Shown here: positions 1 through 7,815 of the stretch, in pieces
Layout of the letters: the number at the start of each line of letters is the position of its first letter
Numbering within the stretch: position 1 is the stretch's first letter
Virus record (IMG/VR): IMGVR_UViG_2703718778_000005
Source of the DNA: a virus
Lineage: Duplodnaviria > Heunggongvirae > Uroviricota > Caudoviricetes
DNA: 8,280 nucleotides
Strand: one strand, 5' to 3'
The notes under the pieces: model-generated
What the model was told of the DNA's origin: nothing
Seen by the model: only the letters and a program-made list of their open reading frames with translations
The model's database searches: none
Program-made: the position numbers and the translations under genes

Positions 1-190
<190 letters not shown>

Positions 191-191
191 C

Positions 192-2078
192 TTACTCTTC
201 CATCGCCTGGCGGATCTGATCCAACGACGCTGGATCATCAATGGTCGTCAGATCTCCAGGATCGCGTCCTTCGCAAATCGCCTGGATCGTGCGGCGCAGC
301 ATTTTTCCGGATCGCGTTTTTGGCAATTGCGAGACAAACCAGACGTGCGCCGGGCGGCCAAAGTTGCCAATCTGGCTGTCCACCAGCGCCATAATCGCCT
401 TCTCTTGCGAATGCGCCACATCACGATCTTCCAGACTGTCGCTCTCTTTCGGAATGACAAACGCTACCGCCACCTGCCCTTTCAGCGCATCTTTCACCCC
501 AACCACCGCCACTTCGGCAACGCCCGGATGACTGGAAATACTCTCTTCAATCTCGCGCGTGCCCAGCCGATGCCCGGCAACGTTAATCACATCGTCAGTG
601 CGCCCGAGAATAAAGTGATAACCGTCAGCATCGCGGATGCCCCAGTCAAAGGTGGCGTACACCGGACGGGAAAACAGCGACCAGTACGTCTTCACAAAGC
701 GGTCGTCATCGCCCCAGATGGTCTGAATACACCCCGGCGGCAGCGGCCCTTCCACCACCAGCATCCCTTTCTCGTTGACGCCACACGGTTCGCCGGTGAC
801 TTCATTAAGCAACTGCACGTTATAGCCATACATCGGCACGCCGGGGCTTCCCAGACGCGTCGGCCTGTCGTCCAGACCGCGAGCAATCGCCATAATCGGC
901 CAGCCGGATTCGGTCTGCCAGTAGTTGTCGATGACCGGCACATCCAGCGTATTGCTCACCCAACTGGCGGTCGGCTCGTCCAGCGGTTCTCCAGCCAGAT
1001 AGAGCACTTCCAGCGACGAGAGATCGTGTTTGCGAATTTCAGCGGTAGGGAATTTTTTCAGCACGCGAATGGCGGTCGGCGCTGAGAACATCCGGCTAAC
1101 CTGATATTTCTCGACGATTTTCCACCACACGCCGCAGTCCGGCCAGGTCGGTAATCCTTCGTAAACGATAGTCGCCATCCCCGCCAGCAGCGGCGCGTAG
1201 ACGATATACGAATGCCCCACCACCCAGCCGATATCCGAAGCACAAAAGAACACACCGCCCGCTTTGCCGCCAAAAATGGTGTCCATCGAGGTCGCCAGCG
1301 CCACCGCATATCCGCCGACGTCACGCTGCACGCCTTTAGGTTTGCCGGTCGTGCCGGAGGTGTAGAGAATGCAGGAGGTTTCGTTGGATTCCAGCCACGC
1401 CACCGGTACCCGCGCGCCGATGTGTTGATGGCGCAACGACGCGAAATCGACATCCCGCCCGCTGACGCGCGCCATTTTCGCCAGCCCGCGATCCACCAGC
1501 AAAACATGGCGCGGCTGGTGCTGCGCCTGACTTATCGCATCGTCGAGCAATTTTTTATAGGGAATGATTTTGCCACCGCGCGCTCCGGCATCAGCCGAGA
1601 CAATCAGCACCGGTTTAGCATCATCAATTCGCGCCGCCACGCTGTGCGAGGCAAATCCACCAAACACCACCGAGTGAATAGCGCCAATGCGCGCGCAGGC
1701 CAGCAGGGTAATATGCGCTTCGGCAATCATCGGCATATACACCAGCACCCGATCGCCACGCTGCACGCCCAGCGAGCGCAGCATTGACGCCACCGCGTTT
1801 ACTTCGTCATGAAGCTGGCGAAAGGTAAAGGTGCGCTCTTCTTCTGTTTCCGAAGAGACGGCAATCAGCGCCAGCGCCTCTGGCTGTTTCTCCAGCCAGC
1901 GATCGATAGCGTTGTGACACAAGTTGGTTCGGCCTTCACAAAACCAACGGGCAAACGGCGGATTGCTGTGATCGAGCGTTTGCGTAAAGGGCGTCTGCCA
2001 GTCAATACGCCGGGCCTGCTCGGCCCAGAACTGCTCCGGTTCGTTAATCGAACGCTGATAAAATTCGCTAAAAGACAT
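192..2078 (-). CDS. prpE: Propionate--CoA ligase (propionyl-CoA synthetase), acyl-CoA synthetase family
   Basis: 628-aa ORF whose length and sequence match E. coli PrpE as I recall it; contains the AMP-binding motif YTSGTTGKPKG. ATG at 2076-2078 preceded on the minus strand by AGGAGAG with a 4-nt spacer; TAA stop at 192-194. Last gene of the operon. Confidence 0.96.
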   Translation of the reverse strand: MSFSEFYQRSINEPEQFWAEQARRIDWQTPFTQTLDHSNPPFARWFCEGRTNLCHNAIDRWLEKQPEALALIAVSSETEEERTFTFRQLHDEVNAVASMLRSLGVQRGDRVLVYMPMIAEAHITLLACARIGAIHSVVFGGFASHSVAARIDDAKPVLIVSADAGARGGKIIPYKKLLDDAISQAQHQPRHVLLVDRGLAKMARVSGRDVDFASLRHQHIGARVPVAWLESNETSCILYTSGTTGKPKGVQRDVGGYAVALATSMDTIFGGKAGGVFFCASDIGWVVGHSYIVYAPLLAGMATIVYEGLPTWPDCGVWWKIVEKYQVSRMFSAPTAIRVLKKFPTAEIRKHDLSSLEVLYLAGEPLDEPTASWVSNTLDVPVIDNYWQTESGWPIMAIARGLDDRPTRLGSPGVPMYGYNVQLLNEVTGEPCGVNEKGMLVVEGPLPPGCIQTIWGDDDRFVKTYWSLFSRPVYATFDWGIRDADGYHFILGRTDDVINVAGHRLGTREIEESISSHPGVAEVAVVGVKDALKGQVAVAFVIPKESDSLEDRDVAHSQEKAIMALVDSQIGNFGRPAHVWFVSQLPKTRSGKMLRRTIQAICEGRDPGDLTTIDDPASLDQIRQAMEE

Positions 2079-2117
2079 AATGCTCTCCTGTTGAACTTAC
2101 GCCTTACCGCCGTTTAC

Positions 2118-3569
2118 TTAAATGACGTACAGGTCGAGATACTCATTGACCGGCATCTGTTCCAGGCGAGCTCTGTCGAGAGAAACCTCCAGAATGCGCT
2201 GCTGCTGGCGAGTCGGGAACTGGCGCGCGAGATTGATTTTGAATTTATCCACCAGCTTCGGAATGCCATCCTGACGGCGGCGAGCATGACCAATGGGGTA
2301 CTCCACCACCACTTCTTCAAAGCGCGTGCCGTCGGTGAACTCAAGAGTAATGGCATTGGCGATGGCGCGTTTTTCCGGGTCGTGGTAGTCAGCGGTAAAC
2401 GTCGGATCTTCAAAGCAATTGATCTTCTCGCGCAGGGCGTCAATGCGTTTATCTTGCGCAACGTTGTCCTCGTAATCTGCCGCCGTTAAGCGCCCGAACA
2501 ACAGCGGGATCGCCACCATGTATTGAATGCAGTGGTCGCGGTCAGCCGGGTTATTGAGCGGCCCTTTTTTGTCGATGATGCGAATACAGGCTTCGTGGGT
2601 GCGAATGGTCACTTTTTCGATATCCGCCGCCGTTTTGCCTGCTGCTTGCATCTGTTCATAGAGCGTCATCGCCGCTTCAACTGCCGTCTGGGAGTGGAAC
2701 TCCGCCGGGAAGGAGATTTTGAACAGCACATTTTCCATGACGTAAGAACCGTACGGGCGCTGGAAGCGGAACGATTCACCTTTGAAGGAGACGTCGTAGA
2801 AGCCCCACACCGGCGCAGTCAGGGCTGACGGGTAACCCATTTCGCCCGTTTTCGCCATCAGTGCCAGACGTACCGCGCGGGAAGTGGCATCGCCCGCCGC
2901 CCAGGATTTACGCGTGCCGGTGTTCGGCGCATGGCGATAGGTGCGCAGCGACTGACCGTCCACCCACGCCAGCGAAACGGCGTTGAGAATTTCCTCGCGG
3001 GTCAGGCCAAGCATTTCGGCGACCACGGCGGTGGAAGCCACTTTCACTAACAGAACGTGGTCGAGGCCAACGCGGTTAAAGGAGTTTTCCAGCGCGATGC
3101 AGCCCTGAATTTCATGGGCTTTGATCATTCCGGTCAGCACCTGTTTCATGGTCAACGGCGCTTTGCCGCTGGCGACCGCGTTGCGCGAAAGCCAGTCTGC
3201 CGTTGCCAGAATGCCGCCGAGGTTGTCGGAAGGATGCCCCCACTCCGCCGCCAGCCAGGTATCGTTGAAATCGAGCCAACGGATCATCGCGCCGATGTTA
3301 AATGCCGCCTGGACGGGGTCGAGCTGGAACTGAGTTCCGGGGACGCGCACGCCGTTAGGTACGACGGTGCCGGGGACAATTGGCCCCAGCAGTTTTTTAC
3401 AGGCTGGGTATTCGAGAGCTTCAAGACCGCAGCCGAGCGTGTCGAGCAGGCAGTAATGTGCGGTGTCGTAGGCTACTTTGGAGCTGATTTCGTAGTTCAT
3501 GACGTAATCGACGATATCAACGATTTCACGATCAAATTCCGGGCGGATGTTGTTGATTTGAGCTGACAT
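2118..3569 (-). CDS. prpD: 2-methylcitrate dehydratase (MmgE/PrpD family)
   Basis: 483-aa ORF matching E. coli PrpD in length and sequence ([23 protein letters not shown]...EYLDLYVI). ATG at 3567-3569 with AAGGAA upstream; 39-bp gap to prpE. Confidence 0.96.
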
Positions 3570-3602
3570 TGGGTACGTTTCCTTATTGTTATTCGTAGAG
3601 GT

Positions 3603-4715
3603 TTACTGGCGCTTATCCAGCGCGACAAACTGGCGGTCTTCCGGTCCAACATAATTGGCGGAAGGACGGATAATTTTGTTGTCCTGACGTTGTTCGATAA
3701 TGTGCGCCGCCCAGCCGGTGACGCGGGCGATAACAAACAGTGGTGTGAACATCTCGGTGGGAACGCCCATCATGTTGTAGGAAACAGCAGAGAACCAGTC
3801 GAGATTGGGGAACATCTTTTTGCTCTCCCACATCACCGTTTCCAGGCGATCGGCGATGTTGTACATCTTCAGCGAGCCGCCTTCCTGCGAGAGCTGCTTC
3901 GCCACACGTTTAATCACCTGGTGGCGCGGGTCAGCGATGGTGTAAACCGGATGACCAAAACCAATGACCACTTCTTTGTTTTCCACGCGCTTGCGGATAT
4001 CTGCTTCGGCTTCGTCCGGCGTTTCGTAGCGTTGCTGGATCTCCAGCGACACTTCATTCGCCCCGCCGTGTTTTGGCCCGCGCAGTGCGCCAATCGCGCC
4101 AATAATCGCGGAATACATATCAGAGCCGGTGCCCGCAATCACCCGACTGGTAAAGGTGGAGGCGTTAAACTCGTGTTCGGCGTACAGCACCAGCGAGATA
4201 TGCATCGCCTTTTCCCAGCTTTGCGATGGCTTTTCGCCGTGCAGCAGATGCAGGAAGTGACCGCCGATGGAGTCGTCATCGGTTTCCGGTTGGATGCGTT
4301 CGCCGTTGTGGCTGTAGTGATACCAATAAAGGAGAATCGAGCTAAGCGACGCCAGCAGTTTGTCGGCAATATCCCGCGCGCCAGAGACGGTATGCCCCTC
4401 TTTTTCTGGCAGCGTGCAGCCGAGCGCGGAAACACCGGTGCGCATAACATCCATCGGGTGTGACGCCGCCGGTAAGGCTTCCAGCACGGTACGCACGTTA
4501 GCCGGTAAACCACGCAGGGCTTTCAGTTTCGTTTTGTAAGCGGCGAGTTCGTCACGGGTCGGCAGTTTGCCGTGGATCAGCAGATGAGCCACTTCTTCAA
4601 ATTCGCAATGTTCCGCCAGATCAAGAATATCGTAGCCACGGTAATGCAGGTCATTGCCACTTTTACCCACGGTGCAGAGCGCCGTATTGCCCGCCGGAAC
4701 GCCGGAAAGTGCCAC
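3603..4715 (-). CDS. prpC: 2-methylcitrate synthase, 5'-disrupted (N-terminus replaced at the prophage junction plus a frame break; probable pseudogene or N-truncated product)
   Basis: The 370-aa ORF from GTG at 4713-4715 matches E. coli PrpC from about residue 20 ([33 protein letters not shown]...) to the C-terminus (...FVALDKRQ). Codons matching residues ~10-17 (STHVIKPK) lie at 4746-4723 in a different frame, and no in-frame ATG or native N-terminus exists upstream. Confidence 0.85.
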
Positions 4716-4748
4716 CGATTTTTCGGTTTAATGACATGGGTACTGTAA

Positions 4749-4769
4749 CACCCCGCATAACGCGGGGTG
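4749..4769 (-). other. GC-rich hairpin (8-bp stem, 5-nt loop) downstream of int; weak or non-canonical terminator, or att-arm structure
   Basis: caccccgc-ataac-gcggggtg is a perfect 8-bp inverted repeat. On the minus strand it is followed by TTACAGTACCC, so there is no U-tract and it is not a canonical intrinsic terminator. Confidence 0.35.
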
Positions 4770-4775
4770 CTGAAC

Positions 4776-4788
4776 TATCAACAACTTA
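4776..4788. promoter_or_regulatory. Candidate IHF-binding site in the att arm
   Basis: TATCAACAACTTA fits the IHF consensus WATCAANNNNTTR exactly. A related motif ATCAACGAC recurs at 4806-4814. Confidence 0.25.
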
Positions 4789-4877
4789 GAGAAAACACCT
4801 TAAAAATCAACGACACCCAAAAGCGATATAAGCCGCTATTAAGTGCCATTAATTCAGTTCGCGTAGGCAATGCGTAG

Positions 4878-5858
4878 TCAAACACCCAGTCCTCCACCAA
4901 GCGGATTTAGCGTAATCGCGTGCTGAAGAAAGTCCGGCGAAAGATGCGCATAAATCATCGTTTGCTTGATGCTGGCGTGCCCCATGATTTGCTGAAGCGC
5001 GATAATGTTTCCTCCGTTCATCATGAACCAGCTGGCGAACGTGTGGCGAAGTACGTGCGTTGACTGGCCCCGTGGTAAGTCAGGTTTTACACGCCGCAAC
5101 TGCTCGCGGAACTGAGCATAGTTCACATCAAAGAACGGCCCCGTTTCGCAGGTTTTGATCTCCCGCTCCAGCGCTTCCGAGATCGGCACCGTCCTTTTTT
5201 TGCCGTTCTTCGTTTTCAGAAAGGTCACACGCCCATGATTGACCTGCTCTGCCCGTAGCGTGCTTCCCTCATTCCACCGCGCCCCGGTACTGAGACACAG
5301 CAACGCCACCCGACGATTATCACCCTCCAGAAATTCCAGCAATCGGGCGATCTCCTGCTTTGTAAGGTAAGTCATCGGCGGCTGCGCCTCCCGTAGCGGC
5401 AGCAAACCGCGACAGGGATTTTCAACCCGAAATTCACCGAGTTTAATCAACGCGGTAAACATACCGGACAAACGATAGATATCGCGGTTAATGGTTGATG
5501 CGCTAATGCCATCTGTAAGCCGTTCGCCGCGATGCCTGGCAATTTCACGCTTATCAAGCCGGTTAACAGCCGGATTACCCAGCGCCCTGATTGTTTTTTC
5601 CAGTTGTTGCCTTTCGATTGCGCCGTTCTCCAGTGTCTGACCATGCAACAGCCACCAGATATCCAGCAATTCCCCAAGTGTGCGGCGATCAGTACTTGCG
5701 CCGAGCCATTCTTTTTTCTCGACGTTTGCCATCACATACCGCTCAAACAGGATAGCTTCCTGTTTTTTCTTGAAACGTCTGCGTATGCGTTTGCCTTCAC
5801 GACCACGCGGGTAAATATCCACCTGATATTGCCCCCCTTCGAGCTTCTTAATCGTCAT
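4878..5858 (-). CDS. int: Tyrosine site-specific integrase, P2/186/HP1 family
   Basis: 326-aa ORF. N-terminus MTIKKLEGGQYQVDIYPRGREGKRIRRRFKKKQEA is typical of P2-family integrases. C-terminal catalytic signature is present: TGARWNE (Arg), HVLRHTFAS (His-x-x-Arg), MIYAHL (Tyr nucleophile). Minus-strand RBS GGAGGG 7 nt upstream of ATG 5856-5858. Confidence 0.93.
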   Translation of the reverse strand: MTIKKLEGGQYQVDIYPRGREGKRIRRRFKKKQEAILFERYVMANVEKKEWLGASTDRRTLGELLDIWWLLHGQTLENGAIERQQLEKTIRALGNPAVNRLDKREIARHRGERLTDGISASTINRDIYRLSGMFTALIKLGEFRVENPCRGLLPLREAQPPMTYLTKQEIARLLEFLEGDNRRVALLCLSTGARWNEGSTLRAEQVNHGRVTFLKTKNGKKRTVPISEALEREIKTCETGPFFDVNYAQFREQLRRVKPDLPRGQSTHVLRHTFASWFMMNGGNIIALQQIMGHASIKQTMIYAHLSPDFLQHAITLNPLGGGLGV

Positions 5859-5924
5859 AGCGAAGCCCTCCGGTTGACACCAGTGAAACCGTCTCTAACC
5901 AGTCAATAAAATCAAAATGTAACG

Positions 5925-6248
5925 TTAACCAGTTTTGCGGACGGAGCGGCGCGACGTTGCCACATCTTCGCGCCCATCAGGGGAGAGAGTCGGGGCAATC
6001 TGCCCTGATTCCGGCGCAGTAGTATCAGTCATCAGCCACAGGGCGTACTTCTGAAACCGTGGGTGTGTTGTGATTTTGAGCAAAATTTCACTACCGACAC
6101 CATCCCTTCTCCCTGTCTCGTACTGTTTTTGAGTACTGGCAGGGACACCTGTAAGATCAAAGAATTGGCTTCTGGATAACCCTTCTGCATCTCTTATCAA
6201 ACGAATTTTTTCTCCTATCGAGCTTGACAGGGGTTCATATGACACCAT
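5925..6248 (-). CDS. Immunity repressor, P2 C-family
   Basis: 107-aa ORF with helix-turn-helix-like segment LSRSQFFDLTGVPASTQKQYETG and a C-terminal block WLMTDTTAPESGQIAPTLSP...KTG that closely parallels P2 C (...APESGQIAP...GQKTG) as I recall it. Located just upstream of and co-oriented with int, as in P2. RBS GAGGG 6 nt before the ATG. Confidence 0.85.
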   Translation of the reverse strand: MVSYEPLSSSIGEKIRLIRDAEGLSRSQFFDLTGVPASTQKQYETGRRDGVGSEILLKITTHPRFQKYALWLMTDTTAPESGQIAPTLSPDGREDVATSRRSVRKTG

Positions 6249-6345
6249 ATATTGCCCTCATTGGTTTCAATTGACACCATTCAATTAATACCGCTATAAG
6301 CGGATATAAACCGCCAATAGCACCAGAAAAAGGGGATTATTACAC
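6249..6345. promoter_or_regulatory. Lysis-lysogeny switch region between divergent C and cox (early and repressor promoters with operators)
   Basis: 97-bp AT-rich gap between divergent start codons. Contains TTGACA (6271-6276), the palindrome CCGCTATAAGCGG (6291-6303) and tandem 9-mers TATAAGCGG / TATAAACCG (6295-6303, 6305-6313) spaced 10 bp apart. Confidence 0.5.
6271..6300 (+). promoter_or_regulatory. Candidate sigma70 early promoter (Pe-like) driving cox and downstream genes
   Basis: TTGACA at 6271-6276, 18-bp spacer, TATAAG at 6295-6300. The -10 sits inside the tandem TATAA(G/A)C(G/C)G repeats, as expected if the repressor occludes the -10. Confidence 0.3.
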
Positions 6346-6627
6346 ATGAGAGACAGAGAGCTGGAGCGATATATCAACATCGGCTACCCAATTGATGCCG
6401 TCCCCGGCCCCAAATTCGCCGAGATGATCGGTAAACCGGCATCCGCTGTGAGTGACATGATTTCAGACGGAAAACTACCAGTTATTAAATGGCAGAACCC
6501 TAACGCTCTACGTTCACGCGCTGAAAACTGGATCTACATACCAGAATTCAACAAAGCGATGCGCGAAGCATTCTTTGCTCGCCCGAAAGAGCAACGGGAC
6601 GCATGGTTGTTGTGGATTGGATTGTGA
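6346..6627 (+). CDS. cox: Cox-family excisionase / switch repressor (P2 Cox-like)
   Basis: 93-aa ORF. FAEMIGKPASAVSDMISDGKLPVI...WIYIPEFN...RPKEQRDAWLLWIGL parallels P2 Cox (FAKLIGKSTGAVRRMIDKGKLPVI...WVYLPAWN...RPKEIRDGWLMWLGL) as I recall it. Divergent from C. Confidence 0.85.
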   Translation: MRDRELERYINIGYPIDAVPGPKFAEMIGKPASAVSDMISDGKLPVIKWQNPNALRSRAENWIYIPEFNKAMREAFFARPKEQRDAWLLWIGL

Positions 6628-6703: not shown

Positions 6704-6952
6704 ATGAAGGAGAGAGAAGTGAGCAGTAATACACCAGGTTTACGGGATATGCAAATCATAGATAACCGCCCCACAGAAAAAGAGTTATACAGCCTTTTTC
6801 GGTTCATCATCGTACGCCAACAATCAGGCAGACTGGATCCAACACGAGCAAGCGAAGAATGGAGACAGGTATTTGCCGATTATGAAGCGGATGTAATTGG
6901 GTGTGTCATGGCTGAAGTGGTTTTTAGGCTAACAAGAGACGAATCACTGTAA
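6704..6952 (+). CDS. Hypothetical early protein in the orf78-equivalent position after cox; start uncertain
   Basis: 82-aa ORF from ATG 6704, or 77 aa from in-frame GTG 6719, which has a much better RBS (AAGGAG at 6707-6712, 6-nt spacer). No family recognised. Confidence 0.5.
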   Translation: MKEREVSSNTPGLRDMQIIDNRPTEKELYSLFRFIIVRQQSGRLDPTRASEEWRQVFADYEADVIGCVMAEVVFRLTRDESL

Positions 6953-6977
6953 TCATCACATGAGGATCGGCTGAAGA

Positions 6978-7328
6978 ATGAAACAACAACGAAACGCGCA
7001 CCCCCATAACAACACTGAACGCCACAAATTGCGCAGTGGCGCAGAACGCAACGTTGCGAGTCACTCCCACCGTAAAACTGGTACGACCGCAACTACCGAA
7101 ATCCACGCAACACCAGACGGCCATCCGGTAAAACAAACCGGCAAGCACACCTGGGCGATTGGCGACACTGGCATCGTTATTCACAAAAGTTTTCGTAGCC
7201 CTGTTACTGGCAGATTTAATTTTACCCTGACTCGCGGAGATGATTACTTCGGACAGGACTTCACATTTTTTGAAGCGTTAAGAACGGTCGATCGGTTAAT
7301 GACTGGTCGTAATTTTCACGCTAAATGA
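6978..7328 (+). CDS. Hypothetical early protein with basic, His/Thr/Asn-rich low-complexity N-terminal half
   Basis: 116-aa ORF co-oriented with the early operon, GAGGA 10 nt upstream. N-terminal ~55 aa are low complexity (NAHPHNNTERHKLRSGAERNVASHSHRKTGTTATTEIHATPDGHPVKQTGKH); C-terminal half looks globular. A perfect 12-bp palindrome CGCAACGTTGCG lies inside at 7047-7058. Confidence 0.45.
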   Translation: MKQQRNAHPHNNTERHKLRSGAERNVASHSHRKTGTTATTEIHATPDGHPVKQTGKHTWAIGDTGIVIHKSFRSPVTGRFNFTLTRGDDYFGQDFTFFEALRTVDRLMTGRNFHAK

Positions 7329-7341
7329 TACAGATGAAAAC

Positions 7342-7557
7342 ATGGAAACATACAAAATTAAAAATATTGAACACCATGACGGTTTTTTCAGCACTGAACA
7401 TGTTGCTTGTGTTGTCAGGATTTTCAATGAAGTAGATGTGATTTTGAAGCAAAACATAAAGCTTGAAATCATCGCAAAAAGCGAAGCCGACGCCATTGAA
7501 ATAAAAAAAGCTATTGAACGCCAGATAATGCCGTTGACAAGTATCATTGCATTTTAA
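7342..7557 (+). CDS. Hypothetical small protein (71 aa), first gene of the AT-rich cassette
   Basis: ORF in a region of roughly 30-35% GC by eye. No strong SD; starts 14 nt after the preceding stop. No family recognised. Confidence 0.42.
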   Translation: METYKIKNIEHHDGFFSTEHVACVVRIFNEVDVILKQNIKLEIIAKSEADAIEIKKAIERQIMPLTSIIAF

Positions 7558-7575
7558 GCAACAGGAAAAATAACC

Positions 7576-7815
7576 ATGACCAGAAATTACAAAGAAATCG
7601 TCAATCAGATCATTAAGGCTTACAGCCACCGCATCGCAAAATCACCCGAGTTCATACGCATAATGGAGACGCGCTCATTAATGCAAGGACTGAACGGGTT
7701 GGCACTGGCCGCATTGGCAGCTAACGATATTGATGCCACTATCGAAATAAACAACCTGTTATTAGACATTGAAAAAGGCGGAAACATAGAACCCTACAAT
7801 CTGGAGGCCGCATGA
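7576..7815 (+). CDS. Hypothetical small protein (79 aa), probably helical
   Basis: ATG 7576 with AGGA 9 nt upstream. The stop overlaps the next start as ATGA at 7812-7815. No family recognised. Confidence 0.5.
   Translation: MTRNYKEIVNQIIKAYSHRIAKSPEFIRIMETRSLMQGLNGLALAALAANDIDATIEINNLLLDIEKGGNIEPYNLEAA

Follow-up and report, generated by a model that had tools for sequence, protein, structure and literature searches.

A P2-family prophage junction inside prpC of Escherichia coli and the integrase sub-lineage found at this site

The first codons of a 2-methylcitrate synthase gene, prpC, are missing from a short draft contig, and the 3′ end of a phage integrase gene lies close to the point at which the gene breaks off. 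This locus raises the question of whether prpC serves as the attachment site of a prophage and, if so, what the insertion would leave of the gene and of the operon to which it belongs. The DNA analysed, referred to as the window, is the entire 8,280-bp draft contig LODG01000057.1 (assembly GCA_001609835.1), which ends inside the prophage. The following host features were assigned.

192-2078, minus strand: prpE (propionate-CoA ligase), intact, 628 aa; from the ORF list and the prpE annotation of the homologous region
2118-3569, minus strand: prpD (2-methylcitrate dehydratase), intact, 483 aa
3603-4746, minus strand: prpC′, the 5′-truncated 2-methylcitrate synthase gene; from alignment to the empty site, translations and the ORF list
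4719-4723, no strand assigned: A5/T5 run, which is A6 in the empty-site reference and in the 8 other occupied sites examined

The host segment (1-4746) is approximately 100% identical to several STEC E. coli chromosomes with an intact prp operon, the sole difference being one 1-base gap. The length of the A-run is six in the nine other sequences tabulated and five in the window only.

The empty site of E. coli AMSHJX01 (locus L002) was used as the reference for alignment. On the minus strand, identity between the window and this reference runs through ACAGTACCCATGTCATTAAACCG, and the boundary is found at window position 4746. This final host base lies within prpC codon 9 (AAC). Beyond the boundary the reference reads ATGAGCGACACAACGATCCTGCAAA (...CTGCAAA, the part of prpC up to the first base of codon 9), and the window reads ...GGGGTGTT, its minus-strand upstream side being ...CACCCCGCGTTATGCGGGGTGTT. 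By this alignment, prpC′ has lost its first eight codons and the initial base of the ninth. Between 4746 and the int stop codon (4878-4880) lie 131 bp of non-host DNA (4747-4877). A preliminary description of the locus had put the end of the PrpC match at about 4746-4747, near codon 9, and the 3′ end of a P2-type integrase some 130 bp further on; the alignment places the former at 4746 in codon 9, and the int stop codon follows after 131 bp. The same description had named a reference prpB-prpC sequence identical to 4747-4877 as what would speak against an interruption of prpC. Checked by alignment, the reference sequence does not resemble this stretch.

Window positions 4500-5100 were searched against 5,426 complete E. 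coli genomes, 5,215 of which gave a match. In 5,210 of these the match covers query 1-247 only, corresponding to window 4500-4746. The prpC site is occupied in 5 of the 5,426 genomes, and the same junction was found in three further draft or metagenome contigs.

On the other side of the junction, the following phage features were assigned.

4878-5858 (including the stop codon), minus strand: P2-type tyrosine integrase, 326 aa, apparently intact; motifs TGARW, HVLRH, GH and MIYAHL readable
5925-6248, minus strand: C-type immunity repressor (HTH), co-directional with int; phrog_147 transcriptional regulator, 6.5e-33
6224-6253, plus strand: Pe-like early promoter TTGACA-18-TATATT (sigma-70, 11/12), facing cox
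6346-6627, plus strand: cox (excisionase/repressor of Pc); Pfam Phage_Cox 8.2e-24, phrog_272 6.5e-37
6704-7815, plus strand: small ORFs of the early operon (82 aa; DUF4761, 116 aa; 71 aa; DUF4754, 79 aa)

The integrase belongs to PHROG 1 and carries the Pfam domains Int_N (1.9e-30) and Phage_integrase (1.6e-20). It is approximately 62% identical over its full length to the Int proteins of P2, L-413C and other members of Peduovirus, and 79% identical to those of SEN4, SEN5 and phiT5282H. The repressor scores 24.5 bits against Pfam HTH_31, under the gathering cut-off of 27, and is placed between int and cox, as in P2. The promoter-like sequence at 6224-6253 lies approximately 90 bp upstream of cox, overlaps the start of the repressor gene and is a candidate for the Pe of a P2-type switch. 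Adjoining int, the C repressor and cox are divergent, the arrangement of a P2-type lysis-lysogeny switch. The gene order of the small early ORFs is the same in the finished lysogens described below.

The 131-bp spacer was compared among nine occupied sites, namely those of the window, five finished genomes and contigs L029, L031 and L034, and attP was reconstructed from attL and attR. The elements recognised on the integrase-proximal arm are as follows.

4737-4746, no strand assigned (minus-strand reading): core/crossover region ACAGTACCCA, common to attB, attL and attR
4747-4771, minus strand: stem-loop with a 10-bp stem and a GUUAU loop, directly abutting the core and without a U-tract on either strand
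4776-4788, plus strand: IHF-consensus match TATCAACAACTTA (consensus WATCAANNNNTTR), between the core and the arm repeats
4863-4881, minus strand: pair of direct arm-type repeats with a spacing of 11 bp, which overlaps the stop codon of int

Folding of the stem-loop gave -19.2 kcal/mol (z = -3.4), and none of 200 shuffled sequences was as stable. It is located at -23 from the core in all nine occupied sites, with a compensatory change from C-G to T-A in L034. An intrinsic terminator was considered for this structure and rejected, as no T-run is present on either strand in the prpC lineage and the terminator scan did not call it. The IHF consensus is matched once in the 8,280-bp window. Since chance matches are common (0.27 expected; one or more in 46 of 200 shuffles), the argument for an IHF site is its position rather than its count: a match occurs at -42/-41 from the core in 9/9 sites, one of them with a single mismatch. 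In the int sense the arm repeats read TTGACTAC and TTGCCTAC, corresponding on the plus strand to GTAGGCAA (4863-4870) and GTAGTCAA (4874-4881). The pattern GTAGKCAA has just two matches in the window, both of them the arm repeats (0.26 expected; two or more in 4 of 200 shuffles), and the repeats are found at -135/-124 from the core in every one of the nine sites. A second pair, TTGCCTAC-ATA-TTGCCT, is present on the int-distal arm at +62/+73 in all five finished prophages. When reverse-complemented, the P2-type arm consensus tgTGGaCa (Nilsson et al., PMC3448106) is similar to the window repeats. The spacer thus has the anatomy typical of a P2-type attP arm, with predicted sites for Int and IHF.

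The integrase adjoins prpC in five finished lysogens (JNEC-KY171, JNEC-KY176, E423, EcPF40 and SWHEFF_58), the chromosomes originating from Japan, China, the USA and Hong Kong. Each of the five carries a complete P2-family prophage of 33-38 kb between prpC′ and prpB, encoding a gpA-type replication endonuclease, portal, terminase, GPO scaffold, P2-family capsid, gpM, tail genes and Ogr. The window covers the first 3.5 kb of its own element; the P2-type replication and morphogenetic genes are those seen in the five finished prophages. At the far end of the latter, prpC codons 1-12 and prpB are found, with prpR just past prpB. The far junction reads prpB...ATGAGCGACACAACGATCCTGCAAA-ACAGTACCCA, followed by phage DNA of the type aGTtAaaAAAtat..., gGTtAaaAAA... 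or TGctAgtAAA.... The duplicated core ACAGTACCCA measures 10 bp; variants that retain the preceding A have 11 bp, and E423 and EcPF40 have 12 bp (ACAGTACCCATG). The empty site has a single copy of this 10-12 bp core, and each of the five finished lysogens has one at either prophage end. Past the 10-bp core, the arms and attB are identical at 15 of 20 positions. The stranded 5′ fragment of prpC encodes merely a fusion (junk) peptide of 25-50 aa.

These lysogens also bear on three points of the preliminary description. It had assigned the element to the P2 family, which agrees with the int-C-cox order in the window and with the complete P2-family prophages at the same position in the five finished lysogens. 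It had held that the prpC start, prpB and the promoter are parted from prpC′DE; in these chromosomes the first prpC codons, prpB and prpR indeed lie 33-38 kb away. Finally, the other prophage end and the duplicated core, for which it had proposed a search, were located in all five, the core being ACAGTACCCA.

At least three types of int-distal arm and two variants of the host prpB-prpC leader were distinguished. Cargo differs among the finished prophages (ParM/partition genes, toxin-antitoxin genes, methylases, hok/gef), and the tail modules are of two kinds, with DUF2586/DUF2590 and baseplate J in JNEC-KY171 and the canonical P2 sheath, tube and gpE in the other four. Because distal arms, cargo, tail modules and host leader variants differ, the insertions represent independent integrations. 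The junction in prpC recurs across different phages and hosts. The prophage closest to that of the window is JNEC-KY171 (L001/L003; NZ_AP045167.1 4012205-4045350), with 98% identity through cox.

From these data we consider it highly likely that a P2-family (Peduoviridae) prophage inserted disruptively in prpC codons 9-13 and that window 4716-4877 represents its att junction on the integrase side. In a reaction mediated by Int and IHF, the phage attP would have recombined with the 10-12 bp core ACAGTACCCA(TG), located at these codons of the E. coli gene. Codons 1-12 of the gene, prpB, its upstream promoter and prpR would thereby have been moved to the far prophage end, approximately 33-38 kb off, and prpC′DE would have been left directly behind the phage C-int operon, in the same direction. 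With no in-frame ATG, GTG or TTG from the phage arm and with the 1-bp deletion, no full-length 2-methylcitrate synthase would be made. In the genome of the window, the complete prophage and its far junction are presumably like those of the relatives; this junction would read prpR-prpB-ATGAGCGACACAACGATCCTGCAAAACAGTACCCA, then phage DNA, with TTGCCTAC-ATA-TTGCCT approximately 60 bp on.

What such an insertion does to prpC was followed through the reading frames. Normally, prpBCDE is one operon transcribed from a PrpR-dependent promoter. In the window, prpC′DE is directly downstream of the phage C-int operon and co-directional with it. Nine codons before codon 9, two stop codons (TAG/TGA) close the prpC frame, as they do at seven other sites, and no in-frame ATG, GTG or TTG precedes V20 at these eight of the nine occupied sites, so that the phage DNA does not restore the prpC end in frame there. 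The V20 codon itself is GTA in two lysogens. The A5 run at 4719-4723 amounts to an additional -1 frameshift in prpC′ at about codon 17-18, absent from the preliminary description; as it shifts the frame at this point, the longest remaining prpC′ ORF in the window starts with GTG at 4715 (V20). The short run may be genuine decay that followed the disruption or, since the window is a short draft contig, a homopolymer (assembly) error. Rescue of the frame by the A5 deletion, starting from the phage TTG-TTG, was also considered. The downstream frame is joined in this way, but a TAA at CAT-TAA-ACC intervenes and the candidate was rejected.

With no in-frame start codon from the phage and with the A5 frameshift in addition, prpC in the window is very probably inactive. 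The most likely consequence, judged from the sequence, would be the loss of 2-methylcitrate synthase, an inactive 2-methylcitrate pathway and a lysogen unable to use propionate. The minus strand of window 4500-6500 showed no promoter-like site, and the terminator scan gave no intrinsic terminator between int and prpC′. Read-through from the C-int operon into prpC′DE is plausible, since the two are co-directional and the stem-loop is without a U-tract, and some residual prpC expression is possible. The host prpE of JNEC-KY171 contains an internal stop codon, which fits decay of a disabled operon or relaxed selection.

Variant L029/L030 is built differently. Its int-proximal arm is 1 nt shorter, bringing a phage TTG in frame and giving a chimeric PrpC ORF of 393 aa (at 4075-5256 of L029, logan SRR33953910_47), the first 12 codons of which are phage-encoded. 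The integrase of this variant falls in cluster P0002, the largest of four, with 90 member sequences. No Shine-Dalgarno sequence is visible ahead of the L029 TTG, nor is a ribosome-binding site visible before the ATT start (I14) that PGAP/RefSeq uses in the finished lysogens, where a 'bifunctional 2-methylcitrate synthase/citrate synthase' of 376 aa is annotated (WP_050586174.1, WP_074477501.1). The annotated gene is the following.

L001 19104-20234, and equivalents in L006-L009: PGAP-annotated truncated prpC, prophage disruption unflagged

The 376-aa PrpC is regarded as an annotation convenience rather than as evidence of expression, and is probably misleading.

To place the integrase among its relatives, several collections were searched. 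In a collection of 5.8 billion proteins, its clade comprises four clusters at 90% identity (92-95% identity, approximately 170 member sequences), after which nothing above 80% identity follows. Members adjoining prpC occur in three of the four clusters, and the crossover is at the same prpC nucleotides in 9/9 occupied sites. The fourth cluster, P0004, is 93% identical to the window integrase as far as residue 319, after which the C-terminal tail differs. An element carrying this type was examined.

L035 1617-11967 (ENA ERZ28667040 scaffold_129): satellite-like element with a P4-type integrase, AlpA, a P2-type capsid homologue, an 887-aa Toprim primase and Ogr/Delta

The P0004-type P2 integrase is an internal gene of L035, directly after the primase and without arm repeats downstream. 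L033/L035 was therefore rejected as a counter-example at a locus other than prpC, its 93%-identical integrase being internal to a satellite-like element with its own P4-type integrase. Outside prpC, no element was found to have a member of the clade as its terminal integrase.

By megablast, the phage portion matched none of 50,697 deposited phages, and the best hits of a sensitive blastn search against deposited phages reached approximately 69% nucleotide identity over int-C-cox (phiT5282H, SEN4/5). The free attP pattern CGGGGTGNNACAGTACCCA had no match in IMG/VR (2.9 million contigs). A search of IMG/VR with the integrase gave only relatives of at most 80% identity, mostly from a clade at 77-80%, and among the GTDB species-representative genomes no integrase exceeded 80% identity and none adjoined prpC. 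The prpC clade is rare. The 77-80% clade, by contrast, is common, with 72 related IMG/VR loci nearly all in this range and clusters of hundreds of contigs. Relatives at 79-80% include SEN4/5, phiT5282H, many IMG/VR contigs and prophages in Salmonella, Kosakonia, Trabulsiella, Erwinia and Citrobacter, none of them adjoining prpC. The integrase WP_012906219 of EcPF40 may come from Citrobacter rodentium. The C. rodentium prophage paper lists no prp site (PMC6456863). Because phages and host backgrounds differ, prpC is taken to be the regular site of a small, discrete integrase sub-lineage.

Other explanations were weighed against disruptive insertion at a regular site. It is distinctly unlikely that integration is non-disruptive, the phage arm supplying a prpC start and driving expression so that the lysogen stays Prp+, comparable to integration at tRNA genes, icd or, for PhiSM, pdxB. 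The chimeric 393-aa ORF opened by the in-frame TTG of L029/L030 would suit such an arrangement, as would a C-int operon that points into prpC′DE with no canonical terminator between and the case of PhiSM, which sits at the 5′ end of pdxB with a possible in-frame phage TTG and whose integration was termed nondeleterious (PMC6456863). It is contradicted by the window and seven further sites, which are closed by TAG/TGA nine codons upstream with no start before V20, by V20 being GTA in two lysogens, and by the lack of a Shine-Dalgarno sequence at both the L029 TTG and the PGAP ATT; the A5 frameshift in the window and the internal stop in KY171 prpE point the same way. That the sequence is an assembly chimera, or that a separate island merely abuts an intact prp locus, has next to no probability. 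The window is a short draft contig, as a chimera might be, but the identical junction is present in five finished chromosomes and three further assemblies, and a separate island is at odds with a reference prpB-prpC sequence that does not match 4747-4877.

We also judge it very improbable that prpC is an accidental secondary site of a phage with its preferred attB elsewhere. P2 is known to use secondary sites with imperfect cores (locI/locH), occupancy of prpC is very rare (5/5,426 complete genomes) and the exact identity of attP and attB is short (10-12 bp), all of which would fit such a site. Against this, all nine independent occurrences of the clade with visible flanks are at the identical prpC nucleotide, the phages of the five finished lysogens differ in cargo and tail modules, the only copy elsewhere is internal to the satellite-like element with a P4-type integrase, and the arms keep 15/20 identity with attB past the 10-bp core. 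Even less credible is a reversible switch ('active lysogeny'), in which precise excision restores prpC and propionate catabolism and is followed by re-integration. With int and cox apparently intact and the core duplicated, precise excision would regenerate wild-type prpC, save for the A5 lesion in the window. However, no excision products are in evidence and no free attP was found in the sequence collections searched, P2-type phages are classically non-inducible, and the A5 frameshift together with the KY171 prpE stop suggests decay of the operon rather than upkeep for reuse. Taken more broadly, it is unlikely that the prophage rewires the distal prp genes to phage control, expresses a chimeric PrpC of the L029 type or excises as an operon-restoring switch. 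Phage control might arise because the C-int operon, constitutive in lysogens, reads into prpC′DE without a canonical terminator; if true, part of propionate/2-methylcitrate metabolism would be uncoupled from PrpR and propionate.

The disruptive insertion in prpC can be set beside known systems. With P2 the element shares the gene order int-C-(Pc/Pe)-cox, an int 3′ end abutting the att site, an Int of 62% identity, paired direct arm repeats on both arms, an IHF-consensus site between repeats and core, and a short, partly imperfect core. The attP of P2 lies between ogr and int. The core/attB of the window phage is a different one, within prpC and not at the P2 loc sites. In addition, the arm repeat of the window lineage is TTG(A/C)CTAC instead of tgTGGaCa, a conserved stem-loop abuts the core, and the immunity region is only distantly related.

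The closest deposited integrases are those of SEN4/SEN5 (Senquatrovirus, Salmonella) and phiT5282H (Novemvirus, Enterobacter), at 79% amino-acid identity. Elements of the SEN5/phiT5282H type have the same arm layout, with repeats, an IHF-like site and a core-adjoining stem-loop, but their core reads ...GAAGACAGGGATGGTG..., after which TCTATGGCAAGGAAAACAGGG comes next in prophages, and the adjoining host DNA is not prpC; ACAG alone is common to the two cores. In the SEN5-type hairpin (L004, L005, L010-L015) the stem sequences differ while the structure is kept by several compensatory changes, and it is followed by a T-run on the opposite strand, unlike that of the prpC lineage.

A parallel is offered by PhiSM (C. 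rodentium CRP38, described as similar to the P2-like phage P88), which integrates 6 bp inside the 5′ end of pdxB and for which a possible phage-encoded in-frame TTG for pdxB has been predicted bioinformatically (PMC6456863). As in prpC, the first codons of a metabolic gene are hit and the ORF is parted from its start codon and regulatory region, the L029 TTG being analogous to the PhiSM one. Gene, core and integrase are all different, however, and as the window and most prpC lysogens are without a substitute start codon, the prpC insertion looks truly disruptive. Prophages disrupting protein-coding genes of E. coli and Salmonella, in ompW and 15 further genes, are described in the main text of Bobay et al. 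2013 (PMC3603311). Like these, prpC is an intragenic, disruptive, low-frequency site at which related integrases share one locus; prp is unmentioned in that main text. According to the texts of the surveys, P2-like phages use many E. coli sites, with 13 loci in one survey and 30 spots for P2-like and P4-like elements in another (PMC3603311, PMC13586616, PMC3448106). The open-access full text searched gave no paper that names prpC as an attachment site of a phage; the spot may already be listed, uncommented, in supplementary tables of the large surveys.

The preliminary description had not recognised a P2-like integration site in prpC, and this is borne out by its occupancy in 5/5,426 genomes, by an integrase lineage and attP absent from deposited phages and IMG/VR, and by the lack of a paper naming prpC among those found. 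The prpC site and the integrase specificity appear to be new, the site being rare and apparently undescribed. Mechanistically there is nothing new: events of this kind are ordinary, and the recombination is of the standard site-specific Int/IHF type. The result adds a precisely mapped attB, ACAGTACCCA(TG) in prpC codons 9-13, to the repertoire of P2-family integrases, with both attP arms defined. The prpC clade and its 79-80% relatives with a different core form a natural case for studying core-specificity shifts in P2-type integrases. In lysogens the 2-methylcitrate cycle is predicted to be blocked, which could matter in a propionate-rich gut.

Some further observations were made. The stretch downstream of prpE (window 1-190) contains repeated GC-rich palindromic units, GCCTGATAAGACGCG...CGCATCAGGCATCGGCGC, resembling REP/BIME elements; the end of the contig falls within these units, the probable reason for the assembly break. 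In JNEC-KY171, P2-type head genes are combined with a different tail module, so the same int-C-cox-att module occurs on two virion backbones. The repressor gene of this prophage is intact and 99.7% identical to that of the window, and has no PGAP annotation. Genes for Hok/Gef-family toxins are located just inside the int-distal end in four of the five finished prophages, with two copies in KY171, at the following positions.

L003 12496-13107: Hok/Gef genes
L006 41090-41230: Hok/Gef gene
L007 37565-37705: Hok/Gef gene
L008 8740-8880: Hok/Gef gene

Similar hok/gef segments are present in many other E. coli genomes.
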